Shown piece after piece: positions 10,714-36,452 of a DNA stretch of 64,000 nucleotides (positions are counted from its first letter, which is position 1; every line of letters starts with the position of its first letter). A program made the translations under genes and the position numbers. Where the stretch lies: positions 21,244-85,243 of the forward strand of contig CAVJWC010000004.1 of assembly GCA_963653425.1 (NCBI GenBank), in the 5' to 3' direction. The DNA is from Eubacterium sp. Its GTDB lineage: Bacteria; Bacillota; Clostridia; Christensenellales; CAG-314. Under the pieces are notes generated by a model that ran no database searches, had not been told where the DNA came from, and worked only from the letters and a program-made list of their open reading frames with translations.

Positions 10714-10761
10714 CGGCGGAAAGGTCTCGGATTGCTGAAAATCAACGGAGGTTGAACCCGA

Positions 10762-11496: not shown

Positions 11497-11515
11497 ATAA
11501 AGGAGTAAATAAAAA

Positions 11516-12024: not shown

Positions 12025-12027
12025 GCA

Positions 12028-13701
12028 ATGGCAAGTTGTTTGACTTTGAAAAAATCAAATTGTAAAAACTGTTATAAGTGCATAAGGCATTGCCCGGTCA
12101 AATCCATAAGATTTACCGCAAATCAGGCGCACATAATAAGCGACGAATGCGTACTCTGCGGACATTGTTTCGTCGTCTGTCCCCAAAACGCAAAGGAAAT
12201 TGCGAGCGAAACCGAAAAGGTTAAGGTTCTTTTGCAGTCGGGCGATCCCGTCGTCGTAAGTCTTGCGCCGTCGTTTATCGCAAATTACGACGGAATAGGC
12301 ATTAACGGAATGAGAGCCGCGCTTAAAAAGCTCGGTTTTTACGACGTCGAAGAAACGGCTATCGGCGCGACTATCGTTAAGACCGAGTACGAGAAGATAC
12401 TTGCCGAACATCAGAAAGATATAGTTATCTCTTCCTGCTGTCATTCGGTAAACCTTCTGATTCAGAAGTATTTCCCGAACGAACTCCCCTATCTTGCAGA
12501 AGTTCTGTCCCCCATGCAGGCTCACGCTCAGGATATAAAGAGAAGGATTCCCAACGCTAAGGTCGTATTTATAGGTCCGTGCGTAGCCAAAAAGGACGAA
12601 GCTCAGGCTTACCCCGGATACGCCGACGCCGTTCTTACTTACGAAGACCTTGCGGTGTGGATGAAAGAAGCCAAAGTAACTCTCGTTCCGGACGTTGACG
12701 ATACCGAAGAGAGCCTTGCGAGATTTTTCCCGACTACGGGAGGCGTTCTCAAAACGATGGCAAAGGACAAGGAATATACCTATATGGCGATAGAAGGTAT
12801 GGACAACTGTATCGCCGCTCTTAAAGACGTCGAAAGCAAGAGAGTACACAGATGTTTCATAGAAATGTCGGCTTGTATCGGCAGTTGCGTGGGCGGTCCC
12901 GTTATGGAAAAATTCCACAGGAGTCCCGTACGCGATTACGCGGCTGTCGCAAGATATGCGGGCGATAAAGACTTCGTAGTCGATCAGCCTTCTTCCGAAG
13001 AGGTTAAAAAGCCCTTCGCGGCTATCGACACGAGAGCCGATTATCCTACCGAAGCGGAAATAACCGAAATCCTCAGAAAGATGGGTAAAACCAAACACGA
13101 GGACGAACTCAACTGCGGTTCCTGCGGATATAACACCTGCCGTGAAAAAGCCGTCGCTATCTATCAGGGAAAGGCGGAAATCTCCATGTGTCTGCCCTAC
13201 CTCAAAGAAAAAGCAGAGAGTTTCTCCGACTGCATAGTCAACAATACCCCCAACGGACTTATCGTTCTCAACGAAAATCTCGAAGTTCAGCAGATAAACG
13301 CGGCTGCGAGAAAGATAATGAATATCCGTTCGGCTTCGGACGTATTGGGCGACGGAGTAGTCAGAATTCTCGACACGGAAATCTTCACGAGAGTGCTTAA
13401 TTCAAAGCGTAGCGTAAGAAACGAAAGAACTTATCTTGCAGAATACAAAAAGTACGTTGAACAGACGGTCGTTTACGACTCGACTTATCATCTTCTCGTT
13501 TGTATTATGCGTGATATAACCGACGAGGAAAACGAAAGAGAAAAGAAAGAAAGTATTTCGCATCAGACCGTGGAAGTTGCCGATAAGGTCGTTGAAAAGC
13601 AAATGCGTATCGTTCAGGAGATAGCTTCGCTTCTCGGCGAAACGGCAGCCGAAACCAAGATAGCTTTAACCAAGCTGAAGGAGTCTATTGCCGATGAATG
13701 A
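12028..13701 (+). CDS. hydS: Sensory-type [FeFe]-hydrogenase-like protein with a C-terminal PAS domain (HydS, group C-like)
   Basis: N-terminal 2x CxxCxxCxxxCP ferredoxin motifs. H-cluster-domain motifs are altered from the catalytic consensus (ISSCCHS, IGPCVAKKDEA, IEMSACIGSCVGGP). An extra CGSCGYNTC motif is followed by a PAS-like region (NTPNGLIVLNENLEVQQINAAARKIM...). Confidence 0.8.
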   Translation: MASCLTLKKSNCKNCYKCIRHCPVKSIRFTANQAHIISDECVLCGHCFVVCPQNAKEIASETEKVKVLLQSGDPVVVSLAPSFIANYDGIGINGMRAALKKLGFYDVEETAIGATIVKTEYEKILAEHQKDIVISSCCHSVNLLIQKYFPNELPYLAEVLSPMQAHAQDIKRRIPNAKVVFIGPCVAKKDEAQAYPGYADAVLTYEDLAVWMKEAKVTLVPDVDDTEESLARFFPTTGGVLKTMAKDKEYTYMAIEGMDNCIAALKDVESKRVHRCFIEMSACIGSCVGGPVMEKFHRSPVRDYAAVARYAGDKDFVVDQPSSEEVKKPFAAIDTRADYPTEAEITEILRKMGKTKHEDELNCGSCGYNTCREKAVAIYQGKAEISMCLPYLKEKAESFSDCIVNNTPNGLIVLNENLEVQQINAAARKIMNIRSASDVLGDGVVRILDTEIFTRVLNSKRSVRNERTYLAEYKKYVEQTVVYDSTYHLLVCIMRDITDEENEREKKESISHQTVEVADKVVEKQMRIVQEIASLLGETAAETKIALTKLKESIADE

Positions 13702-14866
13702 TTTGTGCGTCGATATTGGTTATAAAAGTATAAATCACTACGGCGAACAGCTTTGCGGAGATCACGTTGACGTAGTCGAGCAGGGCGAGAATTCTTCCGT
13801 CATCGTTCTTGCGGACGGACTGGGAAGCGGAGTAAAAGCCAGTATTCTTTCCACGCTTACTTCCAAGATAATTTCCACCATGATGGCTGCGGGATTATCC
13901 ATAGAGGATTGCGTGGAAACCATTGCGGCGACTCTGCCCGTGTGTTCCGTAAGGGGCGTGGCTTATTCGACGTTTACCATTATCCATATCGTAAACAACG
14001 AAACGGCGGAAATTATCGAATTCGATAATCCGCAGGTCATAGCTCTTCGCGACGGCGAGAATTACGAAGCCCGCAGAACCGAAATGAACATCGGAGGAAA
14101 GAAAGTCTATAAAACCTCCGTTCATCTTCGCGACGGAGACGTGTTTATCGCAATGAGCGACGGCTGTCCGCACGCAGGTCTCGGAATTCAATACAATTTC
14201 GGTTGGAAACGAGACGACATTATAAGCTATATGGCTCCGCTTGTGTTTGCGGGTTATTCCGCGAAAACGCTTTCCACCATTCTCGTCGACGAGTGCAACA
14301 AGCTTTACGGCGAAAAACCGGGCGACGACGCCACGGCGTGCGTAGTAAAGGTAAGAAAGCGCGAGCCGATGAACATTCTTTTCGGACCTCCTGCCAACCG
14401 CGACGACGAAAACAGAATGATGTCCCTGTTCTTCTCGAAAGAGGGCAAGCACATTATCTGTGGCGGAACTACTTCGACCGTAGCCGCGCGTTATCTCGGT
14501 AAGCCCGTCAGGGCAAGCCTGAAATTTGCCCGCAGCGACGTTCCGCCCATAGCGGAAATAGAAGGCGTAGACCTCGTAACGGAAGGAGTTATAACGGTAA
14601 ATAAGGTTGTCGAATACGCAAACGACGCCTTGGGCGAAAACAAGCTTTACGAAAAATGGAGTTACGGTCAGGACGGAGCTTCTCTCATTTGCAGAATGCT
14701 TTTCGAAGAAGCGACGGACATTAACTTCTACGTCGGAAGAGCGGTTAATCCGGCTCATCAGAACCCTGATTTGCCCATTAACTTCAACATCAAAATGAAT
14801 TTGGTCGAAGAATTATCCAGATGTCTCAGACAGATGGGAAAGAGAATAAAAGTCAGTTATTTTTAA
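13694..14866 (+). CDS. PP2C/SpoIIE-family serine phosphatase
   Basis: GDHVDVVEQGENSSVIVLADGLGSGVKASILS... and ...IAMSDGCPHAG. The start is ATG 13694 (GAAGGAG at 13677-13683); the alternative is TTG 13688. It overlaps the hydS stop. Confidence 0.8.
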   Translation: MNDLCVDIGYKSINHYGEQLCGDHVDVVEQGENSSVIVLADGLGSGVKASILSTLTSKIISTMMAAGLSIEDCVETIAATLPVCSVRGVAYSTFTIIHIVNNETAEIIEFDNPQVIALRDGENYEARRTEMNIGGKKVYKTSVHLRDGDVFIAMSDGCPHAGLGIQYNFGWKRDDIISYMAPLVFAGYSAKTLSTILVDECNKLYGEKPGDDATACVVKVRKREPMNILFGPPANRDDENRMMSLFFSKEGKHIICGGTTSTVAARYLGKPVRASLKFARSDVPPIAEIEGVDLVTEGVITVNKVVEYANDALGENKLYEKWSYGQDGASLICRMLFEEATDINFYVGRAVNPAHQNPDLPINFNIKMNLVEELSRCLRQMGKRIKVSYF

Positions 14867-14875
14867 GGGATTATT

Positions 14876-16303
14876 ATGAGAATATTTGATACGAAAGTAC
14901 AGGAACTCAAATACAGAGTTCTGCGTGAAGTTGCCCGCGCGGCATGGGAAGACAAGCTTCCCGAAGCTGCGTTCGATATACCAAAGAAGATCGTTCCGGG
15001 AAAGATTCCCACGATGCGTTGTTGCGTATATAAAGAACGCGCCATTCTTGCCGAAAGAGTAAAGATTGCTATGGGTGCAAGCACCGACAACCCCAACGTT
15101 ATCGAAGTTATCGATATTGCCTGCGACGAATGTCCGATGGGCGGTTACGAAGTTACCAACGCTTGTCGCGGATGTCTTGCTCACCGTTGCGAAGACGCCT
15201 GCAAATTCGGCGCCATTACCACCGATAAGAACCACGTTGCTCACATAGACAAGAGTAAGTGTAAAGAATGCGGTTCGTGCGCTAAGGTTTGCCCCTACAG
15301 CGCAATACACAACTACAAACGTCCCTGCGAAACGGCTTGTAAAGTCAAAGCCATTTCTATGGGCGAAGAAAAACAGGCTTGCATAGACAACGATAAATGT
15401 ATAGCTTGCGGAGCGTGCGTATATCAGTGTCCGTTCGGCGCGATTACCGATAAGTCTTTCATTCTTGACGCCGTAAACCTGATTAAAAACAGCGAAAACA
15501 ACACGAAATACAAGGTCTACGCGGTAGTGGCTCCTTCCATTTCCAGTCAGTTTACTTACGCTAAACTCGGTCAGGTCATCACCGGTCTTAAAGAACTGGG
15601 CTTCCACACCGTTATCGAAGCCGCTCTGGGAGCAGATATGGTAGCTATGTCCGAATCCAAAGAACTTGCGGAAAAAGGCTTCCTCACCAGTTCCTGCTGT
15701 CCTGCGTTCGTGGCGTTTATAGAAAAGCACTATCCCGACCTGAAACCTCTCGTTTCTCATAATCCTTCGCCTATGACGGCTATAGCTCAGTACATCAAGG
15801 AACACGAAACCGATTCCAGGATTGTATTTATAGGTCCGTGTACCGCCAAGAAGCTCGAAGCTCAGAGAGAATCGGTTAAACCTTGGGTAGACGCCGTTCT
15901 TACGTTCGAAGAACTTCAGGCTCTTATCGACAGCAAAGATATAGACCTTACGACTCTTCCCGAAGGCGTACTCGACAACGCTTCCTACTACGGCAGAATT
16001 TTCGCCCGTGTCGGCGGTCTTTCCGACGCAGTCGTCGAGGCTCTTAAGGAACAGAATATGGAAGACTTCAAAGTTAAATCGGAAGTCTGCGACGGTATCG
16101 AAGCCTGCAAGATCGCTCTGCTTAAAAAGAGCAAGAACCTTCTTCAGTCCAACTTCATCGAAGGTATGGCTTGCGTTGGCGGTTGCATCAACGGCGCAGG
16201 TTGCCTGACTCACGGCGAAAAGAATAAAGCCGAAGTAGATAAGTACGGCAGAGAAGCCTTTGAAAAGACTATAACCGACGCCGTTTCCATTCTCGGCAAA
16301 TAA
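14876..16303 (+). CDS. hydA: Monomeric [FeFe] hydrogenase (group B-like, ~475 aa)
   Basis: Several 4Fe-4S Cys clusters, plus canonical H-cluster motifs TSSCCPAF, IGPCTAKKLEA and EGMACVGGCINGAG. Confidence 0.85.
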   Translation: MRIFDTKVQELKYRVLREVARAAWEDKLPEAAFDIPKKIVPGKIPTMRCCVYKERAILAERVKIAMGASTDNPNVIEVIDIACDECPMGGYEVTNACRGCLAHRCEDACKFGAITTDKNHVAHIDKSKCKECGSCAKVCPYSAIHNYKRPCETACKVKAISMGEEKQACIDNDKCIACGACVYQCPFGAITDKSFILDAVNLIKNSENNTKYKVYAVVAPSISSQFTYAKLGQVITGLKELGFHTVIEAALGADMVAMSESKELAEKGFLTSSCCPAFVAFIEKHYPDLKPLVSHNPSPMTAIAQYIKEHETDSRIVFIGPCTAKKLEAQRESVKPWVDAVLTFEELQALIDSKDIDLTTLPEGVLDNASYYGRIFARVGGLSDAVVEALKEQNMEDFKVKSEVCDGIEACKIALLKKSKNLLQSNFIEGMACVGGCINGAGCLTHGEKNKAEVDKYGREAFEKTITDAVSILGK

Positions 16304-23000: not shown

Positions 23001-23354
23001 TACTTCGGAACGGAAGCAAACGTAACTCTTCCCGAAGGAATCGTTAAGATCGATTCTCACGCATTTGCAGGCAACACGACCGTTAAGAACGTAGTTCTTC
23101 CCGCAAGTCTCGGATATATCGCTGACGGCGCGTTCTACGGATGTACTGCTCTTACCGAAATCACCTTCAAATCCGAAAAAGCACCCGTTCTTCAGAACTA
23201 TTACAGAGACGGCGTAAGATACCTCTATAACCAGTTTGTAAACGATCTCGAAGAAGCTGACGGAAACGAAGACGTTAAGATTTACGTAAGCGGTGACGCA
23301 TCTTACAACACCTACATCTGGAGAACTTACTTCAAAAACATAATCGTAAAATAA
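17064..23354 (+). CDS. Giant S8 protease / BspA-type LRR lipoprotein, copy 2 (~2,096 aa)
   Basis: ATG 17064 with GAGGAGG upstream. It has the same lipobox N-terminus and the motifs AILDTGI, HGTHVAG and GTSMATP. It is collinear with copy 1 but diverges mainly in the catalytic-domain loops and the central LRRs. Confidence 0.85.
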   Translation: MQRKSLIAVLLVAMVLLLISCSSLQLDKPNVIDSSNTTARFSRSLLKAAQFLNGGTSETESDSSTLPAKDDEVYVTVKLGSGIVDSYFGSGFTSVADYALSKEGEAMISDFTAQQDSVIALMRDKKLTTEIKHRYNILQNGFAAKIKFGDIETVKALPGVKQVVLAEEYSIPEVSSKALAASFADTGIFNNPTNYAGAGTVIAILDTGIYADHSAFATAPSVEAINYEYVEKILSVTNAGAVGATAETAYYSAKIPFAFNYADGNERFQPGYSDMSVGHEHGTHVAGIAAGNDDTIKGAAWDAQLAVMRVFGAGKQGANDTDIYAAVEDCVILGVQVANLSLGSTCGFAYEKAEQNQFVNDIVNLARKAGLTMCCATGNVGTAWWDSDTLAPFSAVDDPDNGTVSSPASFPSTFAVGSANNLVKIYVNFEGSRIIGRNGVVDSETSKEINFFAILDGKDEATFEYVAVPGAGAPEDYDGLDVTGKIALVQRGEISFAEKVQNAKDKGAIACILYDNVTEKIEKFGAVVGENTIPTMTITLEDGTTLANAQDKRITIGSSDYFVEYSYFSSMGALNDLSIGVDILGIGAGVYSAVPQYYDWQFGTNGYTYMDGTSMATPNVAGVMAALKGYLKQAYPTKTPAEISNLAMQRLMSTATILENSDGNPITPRRQGSGLADIERAIETDAYITVTGSDRTKLNLGSDTEKDGIYTLNFNVVNDGENALGYKLNVLTFTESAVTGKSINYTLKGADKLMIAEKAYMLDGAEVKYYVNGTLLEGDEITVEAGEKLKIKAVITLTEENKAYMNETFPNGIYVEGFAVLESTDEEGIDLHIPYISFYGDWMTLPAYEPTASDGTASTFGKYFGLTFMSYEDAGNGWFVGQEIQAGVYSYTLPEGYKAPTANADKAAIGRGVDDNGSLDGTVILKAINLAIKRNASSVYLSYTKVGTGESLGNDVFYNIGKACAGTNGGYSLTFNEFYPETLMLANNEQLLFSFTYDFNDKPVGQVVDMPVFIDLEAPTLEKASWRTEDGRTYLDLTVYDNHYLQATGLLTYGTEDSYNSLYKFMFPCYGDVRNGDYSYSIDVTDYMANVVNDTFAVQLVDYARNVSVYEIELPDSGENNANAVITGNENRTLAVRYRTDDAVIYYDVNDPSYTEVHTYSSFDSSKANNAVVNSESEGTDEFVIENGVLKAYNGEGGEVVIPDGVTSIGAYVFNGDSRITKLVLPEGLKSIGYYSIRNLYHLTEIVLPKSLERMEYYSFCTLPLLTSLDLENTSLNYAAFALNGIAGVKTLTFPKTETPLTLNFTLDVCYNLEKVTFLGDVASIHSSFMFNDSLKEIEFMGNVTSLEGVRAGMALSLTGCDVLERIVFHGNVDKLGYCIVQDYGDYVYKDYSQAASALIGLKEVIFEKDVGSIDGISFSGCPKLENVAFGGNVGYIGSGAFGGSDMLYGGFTVLEGNDKLIKDETGIVYNADKTAMFKPSAWDYDGVLELPETITELNEREFSIPEFVPEYVKQDYGIYPEGENGGGYYWNLNSMFGNPDYDKTLLKGVKLGSQIKTLPAYCFYRNYNLAEINLENVEVFKTQSLSGTAITSFRTTENTKKIGAGVWKGCRNLTEIVIGENVEVETYEEFYSGTGFVEIEVPEYITADAAYLFAACKNLEKVTFLNTGSQNIGSGAFSGTTSLKEIIGIDNVTAIGEYAFNLSGITHLELENVKSISGPAFYHAEKIESVYFPALETVEPIYDWDGELYNAFAYCTSLKSFYIGENCGYFNPVGMFEGCDALEEIVVHENNRVFSSIEGILFNKAETAILLYPTASTATELELPDTIKAINAGTFMGAPNLEKVVMPAVETIGANAFAYSAVKEVVVSDALVEIGLGAFRNTAISEFDLSDVLVIDDDAFYATKLTEVTVNKAEYLGNKAFGAIETLEKVTIGGVDEFNFSRVFFGSTNISSVELNGCEVLTEFEDGLYNADKTVLYRYFGTEANVTLPEGIVKIDSHAFAGNTTVKNVVLPASLGYIADGAFYGCTALTEITFKSEKAPVLQNYYRDGVRYLYNQFVNDLEEADGNEDVKIYVSGDASYNTYIWRTYFKNIIVK

Positions 23355-23474
23355 GCGATTAAATAGCTAATCGTAAAATAAGCGATTAAGTAACAACAAC
23401 CAATCGTAAAAGCGATTACACAGCAACAACCAATCGTAAAAGCGATTAAATAGCTAATCGCAAAACAAACGATT
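23342..23474 (+). repeat. Five imperfect copies of AATCG-N6-9-CGATT overlapping the stop codon of paralogue 2
   Basis: Units start at 23342, 23369, 23402, 23432 and 23456. Confidence 0.6.
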
Positions 23475-23493
23475 AAACAAGCCGAAAGGCGAA

Positions 23494-23520
23494 GGCTCCG
23501 CATTTGCGGAGCCTTTTTTA
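23494..23520 (+). terminator. Intrinsic terminator
   Basis: ggctccgc-attt-gcggagcc followed by TTTTTT. Confidence 0.8.
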
Positions 23521-23683
23521 TGAGGAAATTCGTATTAAGAAGAAAATTCGCCTTAGCGTTAAGCGGAAATACGCCTTGAATTGAATACGATTGCCCTTCC
23601 TTGCGCATAGTTTATATATTGCATAGCTTTTATATCGCAGTGTCACGGCATAAAAAGTTAAAGAAAGCGGTGGGCGTTCTTTC

Positions 23684-23712
23684 TTGACAAAAAAGAAAAA
23701 CCGTGATAAAAT
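23684..23712 (+). promoter_or_regulatory. Promoter of the TM1266-family gene
   Basis: TTGACA, 17-bp spacer, TGaTAAAAT (extended -10). Confidence 0.55.
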
Positions 23713-23732
23713 ACAGTTAATCGGAGGCGAAT

Positions 23733-23990
23733 ATGGAATACAGAGTTGCGGTAATCAGCATTATCGTGGAAAAAAACGAAAAAGTGGAGGTTCTTAACGA
23801 GCTTCTGCACGAATACGGGGATTATATCCTCGGCAGAATGGGTATTCCGTACAGAAAACGCGGTATCAACATAATAAGTATCGCTCTCGACGCACCGCAG
23901 GACGTTATAAATTCTCTCGCCGGCAAAATCGGCAGAATAGAGGGTATAACCACAAAAACCGCCTATTCGGGAAGCGTTTATTCCGACTGA
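23733..23990 (+). CDS. TM1266-family putative [FeFe]-hydrogenase-system regulator (small ACT/NikR-C-like protein, 85 aa)
   Basis: Its size and the sequence VAVISIIVEKNEKVEVLNELLHEYGDYILGRMGIPYRKRGINIISIALDAP... are typical of the family found next to hydE/F/G. Confidence 0.7.
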   Translation: MEYRVAVISIIVEKNEKVEVLNELLHEYGDYILGRMGIPYRKRGINIISIALDAPQDVINSLAGKIGRIEGITTKTAYSGSVYSD

Positions 23991-24000
23991 CGATAACGGG

Positions 24001-24065
24001 TTAAAACGGAATTGCTCGTAGATTAAAACGGAATCGCTCGCAGATTAAAACGACGTCGGTCGTCC
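24001..24065. repeat. 22-bp tandem repeat x3 (ttaaaacggaattgctcgtaga)
   Basis: Units start at 24001, 24023 and 24045. Confidence 0.6.
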
Positions 24066-24254
24066 TTCCGAACGAAACCCGACGGAAACCGACAAAAAAT
24101 CCGTTAAAATCGATTCAAACCTACAGAAATCGATTGAAATTGAATAGAAATCGGTTAAAACCGACAAAAAACGACGAATAATAAAAAATCGAATCCCTGA
24201 CGCCGAAATTGCGATTGAGGCGAAAGATAAGGTTCGTGTGAGTGAGTTTGCTTT

Positions 24255-24288
24255 ACCGCACGCCTTTTTCGGGGGGTGCGGTTTTTTC
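24255..24288 (+). terminator. Terminator/attenuator hairpin immediately upstream of the ABC permease RBS
   Basis: accgcac...gtgcggt stem followed by TTTTTT, ending 3 nt before GGAGAA (24291-24296). Confidence 0.5.
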
Positions 24289-24299
24289 GTGGAGAAACA

Positions 24300-25298
24300 A
24301 TGAAAACAGGCTTTTCGACTAAAATCAATTATCCGCTGATTATCGGGCTTATACTTTTCCCCGTGGTAAGTATTCTCGTGTGCTTCTGTATAGGCAGGTA
24401 TTCCGTGTCCGTGGTGGAAATGCTGAGTTGGATTTTCGGCGGAAAGATAGATTCCGTCACGGCTTCGGTACTTTCGCAGAGATTGCCGAGAATTCTCACC
24501 GCGGCTCTCGTGGGCGGAGGACTTTCCGTTGCGGGTTGCGTACTGCAAAGCACCTTTTCCAATCCTCTGGCAACGCCCGACACGTTGGGTGTGGCTTCGG
24601 GCGCGAGTTTCGGCGCGGCTCTTTCCATTTTACTCGGCTTTTCGCTTATAGGAAGTCAGATTCTGGCTTTCGTTTTCGGCGTGGGGGCTTTGCTTCTCAC
24701 TATGCTTGCGGGAAAACGCCGTAGCGGAACGACTTCCATGATTCTTGCGGGCGTAATGATGGGTTCGCTCTTTTCGTCGCTGGTTTCGCTCGTGAAATAT
24801 CTTGCCGACACGGAATCCCAGCTTCCGTCGATAACCTACTGGCTTATGGGAAGTCTGAGCGGAGCGGGCAAAAAAACGCTGATTTTCGGCGCGCCCGTGA
24901 TAATTATCGGCATACTCGTGCTTTTCGTAATGAGAAGGAAACTCAACCTTCTGCCTCTTTCCGAAGACGAAGCCACTTCTCTCGGAACGGATATAAAGAA
25001 ACTGAGAATTACCGCTCTTACCGCGTCGGCGGCAATTACCGCTTCGTCGGTGGCTATGTGCGGTCCCGTGGGCTGGGTAGGGCTTCTCGTTCCTCACGTT
25101 TCGAAAATGCTTTTCGGGAACAATCATAAGATAACCGTTCCCGCTTCGATAAGTTTCGGTTCGGCTTTTCTTGTGGCGGTGGATACGCTTGCACGGTCGG
25201 TTACCGCTTCGGAAATCCCCATATCCGTATTGACGTCGGTTATCGGCGCGCCCTTTTTTATCTATATCCTCAGAAGAAAGGGAGGAAGCGGTTTATGA
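24300..25298 (+). CDS. FecCD/BtuC-type ABC permease (iron-chelate/cobalamin-type importer)
   Basis: A ~330-aa polytopic protein with ...LTAALVGGGLSVAGCVLQSTFSNPLATPDTLGVASGASFGAA... and ...SVLTSVIGAPFFIYIL. The start is taken at ATG 24300. Confidence 0.85.
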   Translation: MKTGFSTKINYPLIIGLILFPVVSILVCFCIGRYSVSVVEMLSWIFGGKIDSVTASVLSQRLPRILTAALVGGGLSVAGCVLQSTFSNPLATPDTLGVASGASFGAALSILLGFSLIGSQILAFVFGVGALLLTMLAGKRRSGTTSMILAGVMMGSLFSSLVSLVKYLADTESQLPSITYWLMGSLSGAGKKTLIFGAPVIIIGILVLFVMRRKLNLLPLSEDEATSLGTDIKKLRITALTASAAITASSVAMCGPVGWVGLLVPHVSKMLFGNNHKITVPASISFGSAFLVAVDTLARSVTASEIPISVLTSVIGAPFFIYILRRKGGSGL

Positions 25299-26347
25299 TT
25301 TTTCAGGTAAAAAACGGCTGTTTCCGCTATAATAAAAAAGAAGACGACGTGCTTTCAGACGTGAATTTCGACGTTAAAAGCGGAGAAATACTTGCCGTTC
25401 TCGGTCCCAACGGAGCGGGTAAGACTACGCTTTTAAGGTGCGCTCTGGGTTTTTTGAAGTTTGACAGGGGCGAAGCTTTGTTTGACGGAAAGAACGTGCG
25501 CTCGTATAGTCCGAGCGAACTTTGGAGGAAAGTGGCTTACGTTCCTCAGGCAAGGCAGACCATATCGCCCTATACGGTGGAAGAAACGGTACTTCTCGGA
25601 AGAAGCAGTTACGGCGATATACTCGGCAGAATTACCGCGGAAGACTATAAAGCAGCGGACGAAGTCATAGAAAAACTCAATTTAGAGCGCATACGGCATA
25701 AAAATTGCAGTGAAATAAGCGGAGGAGAACTTCAGATGGTTCTGATTGCCCGCGCGCTTGCCGTTTTCCCCGAACTTCTCGTACTCGACGAACCCGAATC
25801 CAACCTCGACTTCCGCAATCAGCTTCTCGTTCTCGATACGCTGACGAGACTTGCAAAAAACGGTACGGGTATAATTCTCAACACTCACTATCCCGCGCAC
25901 GCCCTCAGACGGGCGGATAAGGCTCTTATGCTGGGGAAGGACGGAAGTTCGGAATTCGGAAGAACGCAGGAAGTCGTGACGAGCGAAAATATCGGCAGGT
26001 TTTTCGGAGTGAACGCGGTTATAGGCGAAATCGAAACCGACACCAACCATTATATCGACGTTATTCCCGTGGACTTCGATTTGCCCAAGGAAAACACCGA
26101 CGATTCCGAAGTTATAGCTACCTTGTCGGTGATTATGAAAGACAATTCCGTAGCTCAGGAAGTCAACGCCGTTATCCACAAAGCCTTTCCCTTCGTTCTC
26201 GGAAGAATGGGAATGCCCGTAAGGGACGAAGGCTTATATATAATCAATCTCGTGCTTAAAGCTTCCCCGCGCGAAATCCGAGCCGTTTTAAGAGAACTTA
26301 ACGAAAAATCGGGCGTGAGCGTCAAAGCCGTTTTCGAAAGGAGATGA
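25295..26347 (+). CDS. ABC transporter ATP-binding protein (FepC/BtuD-like) fused to a C-terminal TM1266-like domain
   Basis: Walker A GPNGAGKTT, signature SGGELQ, Walker B LLVLDEP. The extra C-terminal ~85 aa (VIATLSVIMKDNSVAQEVNAVIHKAFPFVLGRMGMPVRDEGLYIINLVLKASP...) align with the stand-alone TM1266 protein. Confidence 0.85.
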   Translation: MIFQVKNGCFRYNKKEDDVLSDVNFDVKSGEILAVLGPNGAGKTTLLRCALGFLKFDRGEALFDGKNVRSYSPSELWRKVAYVPQARQTISPYTVEETVLLGRSSYGDILGRITAEDYKAADEVIEKLNLERIRHKNCSEISGGELQMVLIARALAVFPELLVLDEPESNLDFRNQLLVLDTLTRLAKNGTGIILNTHYPAHALRRADKALMLGKDGSSEFGRTQEVVTSENIGRFFGVNAVIGEIETDTNHYIDVIPVDFDLPKENTDDSEVIATLSVIMKDNSVAQEVNAVIHKAFPFVLGRMGMPVRDEGLYIINLVLKASPREIRAVLRELNEKSGVSVKAVFERR

Positions 26348-26351
26348 ACTT

Positions 26352-27404
26352 ATGGTCAGGGATTTAATAGTAAAGCTTAAAGAAAACCGCAGTCTTTCTC
26401 ATTCCGAATGGGTTGAGGTTTTAAGTCGTTACACGGACGAAGACAGAGTTTTTGCCGAAAACGAAGCAAGAAATCTTACCGAAAGAATATTCGGCAGAAA
26501 GATTTTCTTCCGAGGAATAATCGAATTCACCAATTACTGCAAAAACGACTGCTACTACTGCGGAATAAGACGTTCCGACTTAAACGCCGTTCGCTACAGG
26601 CTTTCAAAGGAAGAAATTCTCGAATGCGCCCGAGAAGGCTACGCTTTGGGATACAGAACTTTCGTCCTTCAGGGCGGAGAAGACGCGTTTTTCACCGACG
26701 AAAGACTGATCGATATTATAAAAGCCATAAAGGCGGAATTCCCCGAATGCGCGATTACTTTATCCGTAGGCGAGCGCGACAGAGCTTCCTACGAAAAGCT
26801 GTTCGAAGCGGGCGCGGACAGATACCTTCTTCGTCACGAAACGGCAGACTGCAAGCTTTATAGTAAGCTTCACCCAAAGGAACTTTCACTCGAAAACAGA
26901 ATGAGATGTTTAAGAGACCTTAAAGAAATCGGTTTCCAGACGGGCGCGGGAATGATGATAGGCGCGCCTTATCAGACGGCGGAAGAACTTGCGGAAGACA
27001 TGGAATTTTTGTCCGAATTTAAGCCTCAGATGGTGGGTATAGGTCCGTTTATCCCCCATAAAGACACGCCCTTTTGCGGTTTTCCGTCGGGTAACGAAAA
27101 TCTGACTCTCTTTTGCCTGAGTCTCGTTCGGCTTATGCTTCCCTGTTCGCTTTTGCCCGCGACTACCGCGCTCGGAACGGTTGACGGACGGGGCAGACAA
27201 AAGGGCGTTCTTGCGGGCTGCAACGTCGTTATGCCCAATCTTTCGCCTTTGTCCGTCAGAAAAAAGTACCTTTTATACGACGGAAAGGCAGGAACCGACA
27301 GCGACGCCGAAGAAGGTCTTAAAGTCCTCAGAAAACAGATGGAAGAAATCGGCTACGAGGTCGTAACGGGCAGAGGAGACTATAAACGGGAGGAGAATTT
27401 ATGA
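26352..27404 (+). CDS. hydE: [FeFe]-hydrogenase H-cluster radical-SAM maturase HydE
   Basis: [19 protein letters not shown] (CX3CX2C), [19 protein letters not shown], and [14 protein letters not shown]...LPATTALGT all closely recall the T. maritima HydE sequence as I remember it. Confidence 0.85.
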
Positions 27405-28165
27405 TAAGAATCGCGATTTACGGCAAAGGCGGAATAGGAAAATCCACGACGGTTTCCAATATTTCCGCGGCTCTTTCCGAAAAAGGGCTTAAAGTAATGC
27501 AGATAGGGTGCGATCCCAAAGCAGATTCCACGGTGAACCTTCTTCACGGTGAAAAAATCAATACCGCGCTCGATCTTATACGGGAAAAAGGCAACGATTT
27601 TGTGCTTTCCGATATGGTAAAAATCGGATTCGGAGGAGTGGTTTGCGCCGAAGCGGGCGGTCCCGTCCCCGGTCAGGGTTGTGCGGGAAGAGGTATTATA
27701 GCGGCACTTGAAAAGCTCGAAGAAAAAGGTGCGTACGAAGTCTATAAGCCCGACGTGGTTTTTTACGACGTTTTAGGCGACGTCGTGTGCGGAGGTTTTG
27801 CCATGCCCATGAGAGCAGGTTACGCGCAAAAGGTCTTTATTATAACTTCGGGCGAAAATATGGCTATCCACGCCGGTGCAAATATCGCCGTCGCCTTAGA
27901 TAACTTCAAAGGCAGAGGTTACGCCACGCTCGGAGGAATTATCCTTAACAGAAGGAACGTCCGTAACGAAGAAGAAAAGGTTGCGGAGCTTTGCGACGAC
28001 ATTCATTCGTCGATAACGGGAAGTCTTTCGTTCAGTCCCGTGGTTCAGGAAGCGGACGAGAAGAAGAAGACGGTTATCGAAGCTTTCCCGGACAGCGAAA
28101 TGGCGGAAGAATACAGAAAGCTTGCCGTAAGCGTGATAAAAGCCTGCGGAGGAGATATATGCTGA
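27401..28165 (+). CDS. NifH/BchL-family ATPase (nitrogenase iron-protein-like, short form, 254 aa)
   Basis: [15 protein letters not shown]-loop, [12 protein letters not shown], and both cluster Cys ([18 protein letters not shown]). Confidence 0.85.
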
Positions 28166-29472
28166 AAAGATTGGGCGAAAGCGCGGATATAAAGCCCGTT
28201 AAGATTTCCGAAGCCTCTTTTCCGTCGCCCTTTTCCTCGGGTCTCGAATATTCGGCGCCCGCGAGAGGCGTTTTCAACATAGTCCACACGGGTATGCTTA
28301 TACCCGAAATTCACGAAATTTTCGTGTGCGCGCAGGGTTGTCTCAGAGGAGTGGTTTTAACCGCTGCGGAAATGGGTGCGCAGGAGAGATTCTCTACAGT
28401 TACCGTCAAGGAAAACAACCTTCTTGAAGGCGATATGGAAAGCCTTATAATAGAAGGCGTTTCGGATATTCTTTCAAGGCTCGGTTCGGTTCCGCCCGCC
28501 GTTCTCGTATATACGAGTTGCATCCATCATTTTACGGGGTGTGACCTTAACTACTGCTACGCCGAGCTGAGAAAGAGATTCCCGTCGGTTGAGTTTACCG
28601 ACTGTTATATGAACCCCATTATGCGTAAAAGCGGACTTACGCCCGATCAGATTATGCGCAAACAGCTTTACAGCCTGTTAACGCCAATGAGTTCCGACGG
28701 CGGAATAAATATCATCGGGAACAACTATTCAACGGACGACGAAAGCGACATAGTAAAGCTTATATTAAAGTCGGGAAGGAAACTCAGAGAAGTCACGAGA
28801 TGCAGTAGCTACTCGGAATACAAAGAAATGGCTATGTCTGCGCTTAACGTGAGCTACAACCCGTCGGCTCGCGCTGGCGGAGAAGCTCTCGGAAAAAGGC
28901 TTAACCGAAAACACCTGTTTTTGCCTATGAGCTTCTCGGAAGACAAGATAATCCGTAATATGACCTTGCTTTCAAACGAACTCAACGTAAGTTACGACTG
29001 CGAAGAAGATAAAGAACGCGCCGTAGAAGCCATTAAAAAAGCCCGTAAAGCGGTTGGCGACCGTCCCGTCGCCGTGGACTATACGGCTGTCATTGCGCCA
29101 CTCAGCCTCATAAAACTGCTCGTAGAATTCGGTTTCAACGTCAAAAGGTTTTATACCGATTCTTTTATGCCTATGGAAAGAGAAGAATTCGACTATCTTA
29201 AAGAGAATCTTCCGAATCTTGAAATTCTGCCGACCGTCCGTCCCGAAATGGGAGTAGCAGGCAGGAATCAACCCGAATTCCTTTGCGTGGGACAGAAATC
29301 CGCCTATTTTACGGGTACGAAAAACTTCGTGAATATCGTCGAAGGCGCGGGTTTATACGGGTTTTACGGCATAAGGAGAATTGCTGAACTCATAGAAGAA
29401 GCGAATGCCACGGAAAAAGAAGCGCGCGACTGCATTCAGCAAAAAGGTTGGGGGTGCAACTGCTGTTTATGA
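28159..29472 (+). CDS. Nitrogenase component-1-type (NifD/NifE/BchN-like) protein, 437 aa
   Basis: ATG 28159 overlaps the upstream stop. It has Cys at 57/61/121 and a family-like strand [13 protein letters not shown]...[10 protein letters not shown]. The tail is Cys-rich (GWGCNCCL). Confidence 0.65.
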
Positions 29473-30584
29473 AACAAACTCAGAAGATAATTTCCACTTA
29501 CACGGCGGACGTTTCGGGCGTATGCTCGGCGCTATACGAACTCGAAGGAATGACGGTTATACACGACGCGTCGGGCTGTAATTCCACCTATAACACTCAC
29601 GACGAACCTCGTTGGTACGACAGTCCGAGTCTCGTTTTCATATCGGGACTTACCGAAACCGAGGCTATTATGGGGGACGACGAGAAACTCGTCCGCGACA
29701 TAACCGAAACCGCAAAGGAATTAAAACCGCGTTTTATAGCCATAGCGGGTTCGCCCGTTCCTATGATGACGGGGTGCGACATTCCTGCGATTGCGCGCGA
29801 AACGGAAGCCTTGACGGGCATTCCTTCCTTCGGTTTTCAGACGAGCGGAATGCATTCCTACGTTTCAGGCGCGGGAGAGGCGCTTGAGGCGTATATCGAT
29901 CGTTTCGCGGAACGAAAAGAGAAGAAGAAAAGAAGCGCGAATATCTTAGGCGTAACGCCCGTGGATTTTTCGGTTAACGGGCAGAACGAGAGTATGAAAA
30001 CCTTTCTTATCGAAAACGGATGGGAGGTTATAAGTACGGTAGCTCAGGGAAGTTCACGGCAGGAAATCGCTCTTACGGCTCAGGCGGAAGTCAACCTCGT
30101 CGTCTCTTCCGTAGGACTTAAAACCGCCCGCCTTCTTTATAAGAAGTTCGGAACGCCCTACGTCATAGGTACGCCCTACGGAAAAGAATTCGGAAATCGT
30201 CTCGTTCGTATGATGGAAAAATCCTCGGAAACGGGAGAAAACGCAGTGGGGTTCGGTGACTTTGCGGGTTTCGGCGACGTCTTTATTATAGGCGAATGCG
30301 TAACTTCCCGTTCTTTGGCTATGGCTATAAACATTAAATACGGCAAAGAAGTCCGCGTTATCTGTCCGCTTGAAATGAGCGAAGGACTGCTTTCTACTGG
30401 CGACTACGCTTTATCGGAAGAAGAGGACGTCGAAAACGCGCTTAAAAACGCTTCCGCCGTTATAGCCGATCCGCTTTATAAGCCCATAGTTCCCAAGTCC
30501 GCGAAGTTTTTCGCTCTTCCGCACGAAGGCTTTTCGGGCAGACTTTACAGAAAGAACATTCCCGACCTTATAAAAGGAATATAG
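29469..30584 (+). CDS. Nitrogenase component-1-type (NifK/NifN/BchB-like) protein, 371 aa
   Basis: ATGA overlap with the upstream gene. Motifs include YTADVSGVCSAL, IHDASGCNS, LTETEAIMGDDEKL and AIAGSPVPMMTGCD. Confidence 0.65.
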   Translation: MKQTQKIISTYTADVSGVCSALYELEGMTVIHDASGCNSTYNTHDEPRWYDSPSLVFISGLTETEAIMGDDEKLVRDITETAKELKPRFIAIAGSPVPMMTGCDIPAIARETEALTGIPSFGFQTSGMHSYVSGAGEALEAYIDRFAERKEKKKRSANILGVTPVDFSVNGQNESMKTFLIENGWEVISTVAQGSSRQEIALTAQAEVNLVVSSVGLKTARLLYKKFGTPYVIGTPYGKEFGNRLVRMMEKSSETGENAVGFGDFAGFGDVFIIGECVTSRSLAMAINIKYGKEVRVICPLEMSEGLLSTGDYALSEEEDVENALKNASAVIADPLYKPIVPKSAKFFALPHEGFSGRLYRKNIPDLIKGI

Positions 30585-30753
30585 CGGAGTTCTTCCCTGC
30601 TTAATCGAAGGAATATAATCCTTTCGGTTTAGTCAAAGGAACGTAAAAACGCTTTGGTTTAATCGAGCGTACAAAACGAAGACGTTGACGTTACGAAAAA
30701 CGAAAAAGTAACGTTCGATAGGATATAAAAACCAATTGAAAAAGGAGAAAAAT

Positions 30754-31866
30754 ATGAAAAAAACAGTATTGATTTTACTGCTCGTGTGCCTTACGCTGAC
30801 GCTTTGCGCCTGCCCGTCGCCCGAGCCTCAACCCGACGCAGACACGATTACCGTGACCGACCACGCGGGAAACCAAGTTACTCTTCCCAAAGAAATCAAC
30901 AGAATAGTAGTCGCGGATATATTTCCGCTTCCGTCAATTCTCTCGGTGTTTTTCGGTTCCGCAAGCAAGCTTGTGGGCATAGCGCCTACAAGTATGGCTG
31001 CCGCTAAAAACAGCCTTCTTTCCGAGCTTTATCCCGAAATTCTGAACGCCGAAACGAGTTTTATGCAGGGCGCCGTCGTTAATGCGGAAGAACTCGCAAA
31101 ACTCAGACCCGACGTCGTTTTCGTAAGCACGGGAAGCGCGAAACAGGGCGAAACTTTAAGAAACGCAGGCTTTAACGTAGTGGAAATTTCCGCAAGCAAG
31201 TGGGAATACAACGCAATCGAAACGCTTAACGAGTGGATAAGTCTGCTTTCCGAAATCTTCCCCGCAAGTCAGGAAAGAGCTGAGCTTGCAAAGAAAGCCA
31301 GCCTCGAAGCTTACGACCTCGTAACAAAGAGAGTAAGTTCGCTTAAAACCGAAGAAAAGAAACGCGTGTTCTTTATGTTCCAGTACGGCAAAGACAACAT
31401 TCTGACTTCGGGCAAGAACTTCTTCGGTCAGTGGTGGGCGGAAGCTATGGGCGCGGTCAACGTTGCGGAAGAACTTACCAAAGATAATTCCGTAGCCGTA
31501 AATCTCGAACAGGTTATAGAATGGAATCCCGATATAATCTTCATTACCAACTTCACTACGGCTCAGCCCAAAGACCTTTACGAAAACACTATAGGCAACT
31601 ACGACTGGTCGGAAGTTTCGGCTGTCAAGAACAGAAAGGTATATAAAATGCCTCTCGGTATGTACAGAAGCTACACGCCCGGCATAGATACGCCCGTAAC
31701 TCTTCTCTGGTTTGCAAAGACGGCTTACCCCGAGCTTTTCGGCGACATAGACATAATTGATGAAGTTATAAGCTACTATAAGGACGTTTTCGGAGCGGAA
31801 CTCACTAAGGCTCAGGCTGAATCCATCTTTGCTCCCTCGGGAAACGCAGGAAAAATCGATTATTAG
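30754..31866 (+). CDS. ABC substrate-binding lipoprotein, FhuD/BtuF (chelate-binding) type
   Basis: MKKTVLILLLVCLTLTLCAC lipobox. ITVTDHAGNQVTLPKEINRIVV... is typical of cluster-A binding proteins. The start is ATG 30754, with AAGGAG at 30742-30747. Confidence 0.8.
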   Translation: MKKTVLILLLVCLTLTLCACPSPEPQPDADTITVTDHAGNQVTLPKEINRIVVADIFPLPSILSVFFGSASKLVGIAPTSMAAAKNSLLSELYPEILNAETSFMQGAVVNAEELAKLRPDVVFVSTGSAKQGETLRNAGFNVVEISASKWEYNAIETLNEWISLLSEIFPASQERAELAKKASLEAYDLVTKRVSSLKTEEKKRVFFMFQYGKDNILTSGKNFFGQWWAEAMGAVNVAEELTKDNSVAVNLEQVIEWNPDIIFITNFTTAQPKDLYENTIGNYDWSEVSAVKNRKVYKMPLGMYRSYTPGIDTPVTLLWFAKTAYPELFGDIDIIDEVISYYKDVFGAELTKAQAESIFAPSGNAGKIDY

Positions 31867-31876
31867 GAGATAAACT

Positions 31877-33079
31877 ATGGGACTTAACGATACGCCTTCT
31901 TCCGAAAGAGTGCATATAGGATTTTTCGGACTGAGAAACGCGGGAAAATCCAGTCTCGTCAACGCCGTTACGGGACAGAACCTTTCCCTCGTTTCCGAGA
32001 TAAAGGGAACGACTACCGATCCCGTTCAGAAAACCATGGAGCTTCTTCCCATTGGTCCCGTGGTAATCATAGATACCCCCGGCATTGACGACAGCGGTTC
32101 GTTGGGCGAAATGCGGGTTACCCGGGCAAGAAGAATGCTTGATAAAACCGATATAGCCGTTCTCGTAGTTGACGCCACTTTGGGACTTAACGGCGGAGAT
32201 AAGGAACTTATCGAACTGTTCACCGAAATGAAGATTCCTTATATCGTCGCTATGAATAAGTGCGACCTCCTCACTAAAATACCCGAAACCAAAGATAACG
32301 TTATCTACGTAAGCGCGGAAAAACGTCTGAACGTTTACGAGCTTAAAGAAATGATAGGCAGGCTTTCTGGAGTGCAGGATAAAGGCAAAAGGCTTATAGG
32401 CGACCTGATTTCAAAAAAAGACGTAATAATTCTCGTTACGCCCGTAGATTCGGCTGCTCCGAAGGCAAGACTTATTCTTCCTCAGCAGGAAACAATACGT
32501 GACATTCTCGATTCCGACGCGATAAACGTCGTGGTCAAAGAAACCGAACTTAAGGACGCTCTTGAACTTCTTAGCGGAAAAGTCAGAATGGTTGTTACCG
32601 ACTCTCAGGCTTTCGGAAAGGTCAGCAAAGAAACTCCCGAAGACATTCTGCTTACCTCCTTTTCCATACTGTTTGCCCGCTATAAAGGCGAACTCGACGA
32701 AGCTGTGAAGGGCGCGACTGCTCTTAAAACATTGAAGGACGGCGACAAAGTGCTTATCTCCGAAGGCTGTACTCACCACAGACAGTGCGGAGACATAGGC
32801 TCGGTGAAGCTTCCGAATTGGATAAGCGGTTTTACGGGCAGGAAACTTTCCTTCGATTTCACGTCGGGCGGAACTTTCCCCCAAGACCTTTCGGAATACG
32901 CTCTGGTCGTCCATTGCGGAGCGTGTATGCTCAACGAACGCGAAATGCATTCCCGCATAGAAAAGGCAAGAAACGCAGGCGTTCCCATAACCAATTACGG
33001 AATAGCCATAGCTATGATTCACGGCATATTGAAGCGTTCGCTTTCGCCCTTTCCCGAGCTTATAAAGAGGTATTTTTAA
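31877..33079 (+). CDS. hydF: [FeFe]-hydrogenase H-cluster maturation GTPase HydF
   Basis: G1 motif GLRNAGKSSL, G3 DTPGIDD, G4 NKCD, and C-terminal cluster motif EGCTHHRQC...VHCGACM. Confidence 0.85.
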   Translation: MGLNDTPSSERVHIGFFGLRNAGKSSLVNAVTGQNLSLVSEIKGTTTDPVQKTMELLPIGPVVIIDTPGIDDSGSLGEMRVTRARRMLDKTDIAVLVVDATLGLNGGDKELIELFTEMKIPYIVAMNKCDLLTKIPETKDNVIYVSAEKRLNVYELKEMIGRLSGVQDKGKRLIGDLISKKDVIILVTPVDSAAPKARLILPQQETIRDILDSDAINVVVKETELKDALELLSGKVRMVVTDSQAFGKVSKETPEDILLTSFSILFARYKGELDEAVKGATALKTLKDGDKVLISEGCTHHRQCGDIGSVKLPNWISGFTGRKLSFDFTSGGTFPQDLSEYALVVHCGACMLNEREMHSRIEKARNAGVPITNYGIAIAMIHGILKRSLSPFPELIKRYF

Positions 33080-36378: not shown

Positions 36379-36452
36379 GGTACTCCCGACGGGAATCGAA
36401 CCCATAACTAACCCTTAGGAGGGGTTTATTATATCCATTTAACTACGGAAGC
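36378..36452 (-). tRNA. tRNA-Arg (anticodon CCT), CCA encoded
   Basis: The reverse complement GCTTCCGTAGTTAAATGGATATAATAAACCCCTCCTAAGGGTTAGTTATGGGTTCGATTCCCGTCGGGAGTACCA folds by hand into a cloverleaf. The anticodon loop is CTCCTAA and the T-loop is TTCGATT. Confidence 0.85.

Follow-up and report, generated by a model that had tools for sequence, protein, structure and literature searches.

Nitrogenase-like proteins that lack the ligands of the iron-molybdenum cofactor (FeMo-co) were described in Firmicutes and Archaea as a 'NifHEN-like' clade, with members in Coprococcus catus, Dorea longicatena, Desulfitobacterium hafniense (Dhaf_1539/1540) and Methanocorpusculum labreanum (Mlab_1039/1040; Dos Santos, Fang, Mason, Setubal and Dixon, 2012, BMC Genomics 13:162, PMC3464626). 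The clade is marked by two cysteines of its D/E-like subunit, αC88 and αC154, and by βC95 of the K/N-like one, it occurs as two linked copies in C. catus and D. longicatena, and its genes were found to be associated with ABC transporters and hydrogenase maturation proteins (PMC3464626). Here we describe three adjacent genes, nflH, nflD and nflK, in a 64,000-nucleotide stretch of Eubacterium sp. (assembly GCA_963653425.1, contig CAVJWC010000004.1, positions 21,244 to 85,243; further referred to as the window), and we find that this trio is a further member of the already described, functionally uncharacterised clade. Absence of the FeMo-co ligands, the 2+1 cysteine set, two linked trios in some genomes and the linkage to transporters and maturases are all common to both; nothing contradicts the membership, which was matched through the published description of the clade. 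New with respect to the 2012 work are the frequency with which HydE, HydF, a TM1266-like protein and an importer are linked to the trio, the MolBC-A-like character of the importer, the conserved Cys149 and Cys215, and the C-terminal cysteine tail.

The recent Chemical Reviews survey (2026; PMC13474568) covers Nfa, CfbCD, MAR, ISR, DPOR/COR and Group VI, and the organisms assigned to the clade by Dos Santos et al. do not appear in its text. A literature search for functional studies tying nitrogenase-like proteins to HydE/F/G, HypCDEF or TM1266 gave only the genomic remark of 2012. Among characterised systems, NifEN is the best profile match of NflD and is among the top fold matches of NflK. 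NifEN also holds an interface [4Fe-4S] cluster rather than a P-cluster, as is predicted for the trio, and works in cofactor assembly with a NifH-type ATPase and a radical S-adenosylmethionine (SAM) partner. It differs in its 3+1 cysteine set (NifE C37/C62/C124, NifN C44): equivalents of C62, C124 and NifN-C44 are kept in the trio, whereas a serine stands at C37 and C250 falls in a gap. Moreover, the trio has no NifB or NifX partner, and the identity is only ~13–19%.

DPOR/COR and CfbCD, two-component reductases that depend on ATP, have one interface [4Fe-4S] cluster and a reduced set of cysteines, an arrangement that the trio probably shares. The cluster of DPOR has a carboxylate ligand (3 Cys + 1 Asp), and in NflK an invariant Asp14 stands at the βC70 column, a likeness to be taken as analogy only. 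Membership in either group was rejected. The scores stayed below the BchL (178 vs 345) and BchB (46 vs 490) cut-offs and no bch genes occur in the neighbourhoods, while CfbC reached 306.5 vs 402 and the CfbD model (TIGR03282) gave 27.9 vs 268 for NflK and no match for NflD. In addition, CfbD is a single-subunit homodimer in the methanogen F430 context, whereas the trio has distinct D and K subunits and a Clostridial host, and, unlike both groups, it lacks a context of tetrapyrrole genes. Group VI NflHD(K) of Elusimicrobia (Méheust et al., 2020) resembles the trio in its divergent D and K, in having at most 4/6 P-cluster cysteines, in lacking both NifB and FeMo-co ligands and in the cofactor-synthesis role proposed for it. 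It comes from other taxa, and is accompanied by B12-radical SAM and HemN-like genes instead of HydE, HydF, HypFCDE, the TM1266-like gene and the importer. The SAO 'organometallic' system (Haft and Gwadz) proved to be unrelated.

The trio also bears on the counting of diazotrophs. The term 'pseudo-nifH' was given to nifH-annotated genes of non-diazotrophic Clostridia and gut metagenomes that lack annotated nifD/nifK (Mise et al., 2021, mSphere 6:e00785-21). NflH would score as such a gene, since its D and K partners are too divergent for the standard nifD/nifK models. Mise et al. treated these genes as annotation noise, with no analysis of partners or function. The family is abundant, its members coming mostly from gut and rumen Clostridia, and its nifH-like gene inflates the counts of 'nitrogen fixers' in gut metagenomes.

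The NflHDK Proteins and Their Cluster Ligands

On sequence evidence, the nitrogenase homology of NflH, NflD and NflK is far above chance (Table 1). NflH aligns with Azotobacter vinelandii NifH over residues 3–246, and is placed in the NifH/Fe-protein family by its P-loop, switch I/II and the equivalents of Cys97/Cys132. The P-loop, the switch motifs and the cluster cysteines Cys94 and Cys130 (VCGGFAMP) are invariant in 83/83 homologues, which bears out a previous reading of this DNA (the original prediction), in which a 254-aa NifH-like protein with the P-loop and both cluster cysteines had been noticed. NflH is 49% identical to NifH of Pantoea and Clostridium butyricum and 38% identical to BchL of Sulfitobacter. 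It stays below the curated cut-off for nifH (320 vs 394) as well as for CfbC and BchL, as given above, and likewise for the BchX equivalog; its scores on the CfbC and nifH models are almost equal. The C-terminus of NflH, ACGGDIC (residues 249–254), is partly conserved (Cys249 in 69/83, Cys254 in 44/83).

The partner proteins are more divergent. Cysteines are found at positions 57, 61, 121, 128, 133, 149, 215, 281, 376, 425, 433, 435 and 436 of NflD (437 aa) and at 19, 37, 103, 277 and 299 of NflK (371 aa), so that all the cysteines listed earlier, including Cys215 in TRCSSYSEY and those of the GWGCNCCL end of NflD, are present. NflD had no NCBIfam match, and the single-sequence phmmer search against PDB was also empty; family profiles, unlike the single sequence, reached NifE/NifD. 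The D family profile matched best to NifE (3.5e-18), the K family profile to C. pasteurianum NifD (2.5e-20) and also to NifE, and the names D and K therefore reflect gene order only. In NCBIfam the curated nifD and nifK cut-offs were unreached, while nifE and nifN remained far under the cut-off. Conserved N-termini of homologues back the start codons, as do the gene calls of the source contig. Relatives of 850, 888, 873 and 1010 aa are matched along the entire length of D and have the look of natural D-K fusions; those of 850–888 aa, matched over the D length, suggest that such fusions exist and that D and K may form a heteromer.

To map the ligands, hhalign was run with NifD, NifK, NifE and NifN of Pantoea and BchN and BchB of Sulfitobacter as references, all taken from annotated plasmid records, and with a D family alignment of 64 sequences reaching down to 26% identity. 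The D family aligned with NifD/NifE/BchN over residues 29–423 (probability 98.6%, E 5.6e-16), the K family with NifK/NifN/BchB (probability 97.3%). Direct alignment of D with K was weak in the N-terminal region (probability 18%) and was replaced by the alignment to the reference proteins. Among the α-subunit P-cluster ligands, αCys88 corresponds to D Cys61 and αCys154 to D Cys121; αCys62, the first α-subunit ligand, for which the original prediction could place no equivalent, aligns to D Ser32. On the β-side, βCys95 corresponds to K Cys37, whereas βCys70 falls on K Asp14 and βCys153 on K Pro96. At the FeMo-co site, the αCys275 column is a gap between D Tyr233/Asn234 and αHis442 is replaced by D Tyr400. 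Of the remaining positions, αAsp161 aligns to D Cys128, αPhe186 to D Cys149, αGln191 to D Ile154 and αHis195 to D Ser158. Since only 3/6 P-cluster positions hold cysteine (D-Cys61, D-Cys121, K-Cys37) and neither FeMo-co ligand is kept, the trio is not a nitrogenase, and the earlier view of a nitrogenase-like system that does not fix N2 is upheld by the alignment and by the curated nif cut-offs.

What was earlier read as a 3+3 set of interface ligands, D Cys57/61/121 and K Cys19/37/103, stood only in part. There is indeed a reduced, conserved set of cysteines at the D/K interface, but it is canonical as 2+1. D-Cys57 is specific to the subfamily of the window protein (D1) and aligns with αGly84; K-Cys19 lies on the βCys70 helix, off the βCys70 position, where the invariant Asp14 stands; K-Cys103 aligns with the first Asp of a GDD motif and is not conserved. 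The counts agree with this division: in the wider D family Cys61 and Cys121 are invariant (129/129), Cys57 is kept in 94/129, Cys149 in 101/129 and Cys215 in 85/129, whereas in the K family Cys37 is found in 76/76, Cys19 in 65/76 and Cys103 in only 16/76. Both Asp14 and Pro96 of NflK are invariant in the family. A single interface [4Fe-4S]-type cluster, completed by a fourth, family-specific ligand, would be the most economical reading of this pattern.

Cys215, which was proposed to lie roughly at the place of the cofactor-ligating cysteine of NifD/NifE, is found ~20 residues upstream of the αCys275 column, in the αAsp255 region; NifE-Cys250, the L-cluster ligand, lies within an insertion with respect to the D profile. 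Cys215 is nevertheless conserved in both D1 and the paralogous D2 subfamily (see below), and it is plausible that the alpha-type cavity of NflD holds a functional site. D2 has equivalents of Cys61, Cys121, Cys149 and Cys215, without Cys57 and the cysteine tail. The tail of D1 is real, as was claimed, and conserved in the subfamily (Cys433 in 77/84); the hand-over of a metal or a cluster that was suggested for it is a conjecture. Across the family the tail (residues 433–437 of NflD), KG(W/L)GCx(C/S)C(L/I/V), co-occurs with Cys57 (odds ratio ~6). In NflK, residues 32–51 (HDASGCNSTYNTHDEPRWYD), after Cys37, are almost invariant and have a very low AlphaFold2 confidence; their DEPRW core is common to the paralogous K2. 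This segment is likely an interface or active-site loop.

AlphaFold2 models of NflD (predicted local distance difference test score, pLDDT, 83; predicted template modelling score, pTM, 0.84) and NflK (pLDDT 84, pTM 0.87) are confident, but lose confidence at the cluster cysteines and at the C-terminal tail, and the cysteine tail of NflD is predicted to be disordered. All Foldseek matches were nitrogenase component-1 folds at 10–19% identity and none was outstanding. NflD reached template modelling (TM) scores of 0.5–0.6 against NifK, NifN, BchN and MarD (10–17% identity), NflK 0.64–0.75 against NifE/N and BchB, with BchB at 0.72–0.75.

Operon and Conserved Gene Neighbourhood

The strongest clue to the role of the trio, unused in the original prediction, is provided by the flanking genes for HydE, HydF, a TM1266-like protein and an importer. 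The order is TM1266-like gene, permease, ATPase, hydE, nflH, nflD, nflK, binding protein and hydF. From the permease to nflK neighbouring genes overlap by 4–7 nt or stand 4 nt apart; the ATPase start and the permease stop, as well as the nflH start and the hydE stop, overlap by 4 nt. Judged by this spacing, the genes form a translationally coupled operon with the trio at its core. The identities of HydE and HydF are given by scores that pass the curated equivalog cut-offs about twofold, and both match solved structures of the Thermotoga proteins (T. maritima HydE, 2.4e-81; Thermotoga HydF, 1.8e-102); HydE carries the CX3CX2C motif of radical SAM enzymes, and HydF, a GTPase, has the HydF_dimer and HydF_tetramer domains and a CxH...HCxxC motif. 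The TM1266-like protein, matching PDB 2nzc (4e-13), is a putative ligand-binding regulator or carrier, and its GRMGMP motif recurs in the TM1266-like C-terminal domain of the ATPase. On the source contig the permease is called from a start 24 nt further downstream, which gives 332 aa. Cys26 of the binding protein, conserved and placed after a hydrophobic N-terminus, is read as a lipobox cysteine.

The Pfam/NCBIfam scans covered the larger open reading frames (ORFs) of the window, apart from two of ~2,100 aa, and found no nifB, nifV, nifE/N, modABC or hydG among them. The earlier statement that nif accessory and molybdenum transport genes are missing nearby agrees with this for nifB, nifV, nifE/N and modABC, but absence of molybdenum transport is not fully assertable, given that the importer is MolBC-A-like.

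The linkage extends beyond the window. The D family comprises more than 2,351 clusters at 90% identity (844 representatives at 50%), and relatives were confirmed in 493 stretches by a pattern scan of a one-genome-per-species collection, mostly from gut and rumen Clostridia and including Intestinibacter bartlettii, C. ljungdahlii, C. ragsdalei and C. thailandense. Neighbours were counted in 80 species-level loci, with loci having enough flank as denominators. HydE and the TM1266-like gene are each found beside the trio in 41/53 loci, HydF near it in 32/56, HydE and HydF together in 25/43, at least one importer gene in 37/43 and the binding protein gene in 49/56. All-against-all clustering of the flanking ORFs of the 80 loci gave no further conserved neighbour (HydG, HydA, NifB), and no conserved tetrapyrrole-biosynthesis, haem-degradation, bch or sulfur-metabolism gene was found in these flanks.

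C. ljungdahlii and related species carry, next to a trio of the window type (H1-D1-K1), a divergent second one, H2-D2-K2, after which come HypF, HypD and HypE; three Clostridium species have this HypF-HypD-HypE form of the two-trio cluster. In all five independent metagenome contigs sampled with D2 homologues (57–70% identical to D2 of C. ljungdahlii), H2-D2-K2-HypF-HypC-HypD-HypE lies directly beside the TM1266-like gene or HydE together with H1-D1-K1, HydE being present in two of the five. D2 and K2 are ~430 and ~350 aa long, and the TM1266-like gene occurs in the HypFCDE-type clusters as well. A third subfamily, in which the D C-terminus reads '...GLVV', keeps only the link to the importer; its genes stand in the order H-D-K-binding protein-permease-ATPase, and after them come an O-methyltransferase and a DtxR-type metal repressor. 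Also plasmid pTS1 of Treponema saccharophilum carries the trio with the importer. As the importer is retained in both the 'GLVV' subfamily and T. saccharophilum, it appears to be the oldest partner of this superfamily branch.

The best solved homologue of the permease is HI1471 (240 bits), ahead of FhuB (192), HmuU (158) and BtuC (139). In PDB the binding protein matches the uncharacterised 4ovk (165 bits), HI1472 (82 bits) and a chain deposited as the binding protein of a nickel(II) ABC transporter (61 bits). We take HI1471 and HI1472 (MolB and MolA, of HI1470-72) to be parts of the MolBC-A molybdate/tungstate importer of Haemophilus influenzae, and the nickel transporter chain is presumably CeuE of Helicobacter pylori, which binds Ni-(His)2. 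No Cys/His metal site is seen among the residues conserved in the binding protein or in the TM1266-like protein, and neither therefore points to a ligand. By its relatives, a small metal species is as likely a substrate of the importer as a macrocycle.

Proposed Function and Alternatives

We propose, with a probability of roughly 0.45, that NflHDK acts in accessory metallocofactor biosynthesis, not in catabolism: it would reduce or unload an iron (metal) species, either imported or nascent, or act as its scaffold, for the assembly of a hydrogenase cofactor. The metallocofactor role is suggested by the operon itself, which also encodes the MolBC-A/FecCD-type importer, the TM1266-like module, HydE and HydF. 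Homology, ligand mapping, operon structure and conserved linkage are shown by the sequences, whereas cluster type, electron path, substrate and the link to maturation are inferred. In this model, an NflH dimer would be bridged by a [4Fe-4S] cluster on Cys94/Cys130, and ATP hydrolysis would drive low-potential electrons into an NflD/NflK heteromer. The latter would hold one inter-subunit [4Fe-4S]-type cluster on D-Cys61, D-Cys121 and K-Cys37, with D-Cys57, K-Cys19 or K-Asp14 as the candidate fourth, family-specific ligand. From there electrons could pass to the alpha-type cavity of NflD, lined by an invariant stretch with Cys149, and by Cys215, and the disordered GCxCC tail may serve as a swinging carrier of a metal or a cluster. 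The substrate would be this metal species, imported or nascent, on its way into the hydrogenase cofactor. The same qualitative suggestion was made by Dos Santos et al. (2012; PMC3464626).

Several points weigh against this proposal. In 9/43 loci, including those of I. bartlettii and C. ljungdahlii, the trio has neither HydE nor HydF next to it, and the link to these maturases is thus not obligatory in cis. The solved relatives of the importer bind varied ligands (molybdate/tungstate, Ni-histidine, haem, siderophores), the sequence decides neither the cluster type nor the fourth ligand, and the literature holds no experiment on any member of the family. To our knowledge, the H-cluster maturation reconstituted in vitro requires no nitrogenase-like enzyme. 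The tight and recurrent linkage of the trio to HydE/HydF, HypFCDE and a metal-type importer gives a testable entry to the roles of the remaining uncharacterised nitrogenase-like enzymes. The genes occur in cultured, genetically tractable hosts, e.g., C. ljungdahlii and its relatives. It also bears on possible additional ATP-driven steps of hydrogenase-cofactor formation in anaerobes, including the anaerobic origin of the CO ligand.

One may ask whether the importer rather than the maturases defines the substrate. It could bring a metal chelate or tetrapyrrole (haem, a corrinoid, a siderophore complex), of which NflHDK, as a reductase of the DPOR/COR/CfbCD type, would reduce the ligand or the metal for salvage or release, and the adjacency of HydE/HydF would merely reflect the use of released iron or a shared regulon. 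Tetrapyrroles are the substrates of every characterised nitrogenase-like enzyme that has a single interface [4Fe-4S] cluster (PMC13474568), and the model of NflK comes nearest to BchB in structure. The partner kept most widely is the importer, in the counted loci as well as in the 'GLVV' subfamily and T. saccharophilum, and its permease and binding protein belong to the haem/B12/siderophore class of type II importers. However, the neighbourhoods lack conserved genes of tetrapyrrole biosynthesis or haem degradation, small metal species (MolBC-A, Ni-(His)2), not macrocycles, are the cargo of the importer's nearest solved relatives, and the recurrent HypFCDE/HydE linkage of transporter-less trios is left unexplained. 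We regard such a reductase as somewhat unlikely.

In a second alternative, NflDK would be the end user of a diatomic-ligand unit: the cavity with Cys149 and Cys215 would take an Fe-CO/CN unit from HydE/HydF, or from HypFCDE in the case of the paralogue, or the trios would supply a HydG-independent step, e.g., formation of CO. The two machineries for diatomic ligands, HydE/HydF of [FeFe] and HypFCDE of [NiFe] hydrogenases, co-localise with paralogous trios in many genomes, HydG was never found in the flanks of the retrieved loci, and both cysteines, conserved across D1 and D2, lie in the part of the protein that corresponds to the FeMo-co pocket. Finished units are handed over to apo-enzymes by the carriers HypC and HydF, which fits this role. 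The argument comes purely from gene linkage, though; the ordinary [FeFe] hydrogenases of the hosts already account for HydE/HydF, and Cys149 and Cys215 are missing in a part of the wider D family. Such an end-user or CO-supplying role is improbable in our view, and the same holds for the broader idea that both paralogous trios, with HydE/HydF and HypFCDE, form an unrecognised ATP-driven pathway which makes or hosts an Fe-CO/CN cofactor. If true, it would reveal a HydG-independent or CO-supplying branch of hydrogenase-cofactor biosynthesis or, alternatively, a new class of enzymes, with a nitrogenase-type scaffold carrying a hydrogenase-type cofactor in the FeMo-co pocket of NifD.

Sulfur salvage by a C-S bond-cleaving reductase similar to MarHDK or IsrHDK is very unlikely. 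MAR-like systems are predicted in Clostridia (PMC13474568), and structures of MarD and MarK appear among the fold matches. The MAR/ISR enzymes (Group IV-C/F) have P-cluster-type ligands, an L-cluster-like Cys/His site, a NifB-like MarB/IsrB and a sulfur-regulated context (PMC13474568), whereas in the trio cysteine occupies only 3/6 P-cluster positions, a gap stands at αC275, identity to MarD/K is 13–15%, and neither the window scans nor the conserved neighbourhood gave a NifB/MarB homologue or a sulfur-metabolism gene. Membership was rejected on the ligand mapping and on the missing MarB/IsrB and sulfur context. Finally, despite the NifH-like identity of NflH (49%) and the H-D-K gene order, a true minimal nitrogenase is refuted by the ligand mapping (αC62 Ser, αC275 gap, αH442 Tyr, αQ191 Ile, αH195 Ser, βC70 Asp, βC153 Pro), by the unreached curated nifH, nifD and nifK cut-offs, and by the absence of nifB/E/N/V from the scanned ORFs of the window and from the conserved neighbours of the 80 loci.

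Other Features of the Window

Table 1. Coordinates of the operon and of further features in the 64,000-nucleotide window (positions count from its first letter).
Feature	Position	Strand	Evidence
Giant lipoprotein, 2129 aa	1245-7634		84% identical to its 2127-aa paralogue
Rex-like repressor	10099-10713		
Kinase-like protein	10762-11496		
PAS-containing sensory-type [FeFe] hydrogenase	12028-13701		
PP2C/SpoIIE phosphatase	13688-14866		
Ferredoxin-domain catalytic [FeFe] hydrogenase	14876-16303		
Giant lipoprotein, 2127 aa	16971-23354		84% identical to its 2129-aa paralogue
Promoter-like site TTGACA-17-TAAAAT with TG	23684-23712	+	Consensus scan, 11/12 matches; consensus match only
TM1266-like small ACT-type protein, 85 aa	23733-23990	+	PF21699 1.7e-31; TIGR03959 114 bits, cut-off 60.8
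Type II ABC importer permease, FecCD/BtuC family, MolB-like	24276-25298	+	PF01032 1.4e-85
ABC ATPase with C-terminal TM1266-like domain (residues 274-345)	25295-26347	+	ABC_tran 5.5e-31; TM1266-like 1.2e-12
HydE, radical SAM maturase of the [FeFe]-hydrogenase H-cluster	26352-27404	+	TIGR03956 538 bits, cut-off 255
NflH, NifH-like ATPase/reductase, 254 aa	27401-28165	+	Fer4_NifH (PF00142) 1.6e-86
NflD-like (alpha/NifE-type) component-1 subunit, 437 aa	28159-29472	+	Oxidored_nitro PF00148 4.7e-14
NflK-like component-1 subunit, 371 aa	29469-30584	+	Oxidored_nitro PF00148 1.7e-29
Lipoprotein substrate-binding protein, Peripla_BP_2	30736-31866	+	PF01497 4.5e-22
HydF, GTPase scaffold of [FeFe]-hydrogenase maturation	31877-33079	+	TIGR03918 555 bits, cut-off 326
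tRNA	36381-36452	-	Rfam
Ribosomal L10 leader	50054-50171		Rfam
Large signal recognition particle (SRP) RNA	58336-58600	-	Rfam

Rfam searches of the whole window at the gathering threshold, and of 23300–24400 at E<=1, gave no riboswitch or relevant leader before the operon. At 285 nt, the spacer that separates the permease from the TM1266-like gene (23991–24275) is unusually long; it contains a 22-nt direct repeat, TTAAAACGGAATCGCTCGCAGA, in 2.4 copies (24001–24052), as well as a terminator-like hairpin (24261–24278) directly before the permease start. The idea of a conserved regulatory RNA in this spacer was dropped, because the spacer is not kept in related loci, where the genes abut.

Two [FeFe] hydrogenases are encoded in the same window, 8–12 kb upstream of the operon, and the region 10099–16303 is a hydrogen-sensing and hydrogen-producing module. 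One of the two giant paralogous lipoprotein genes sits between the hydrogenase genes and the nfl operon; in both products a subtilase-type catalytic region is joined by long leucine-rich-repeat-like arrays at the C-terminus. A 30-nt tandem repeat in 2.4–2.7 copies (23369–23450) lies between the giant protease gene and the TM1266-like gene.

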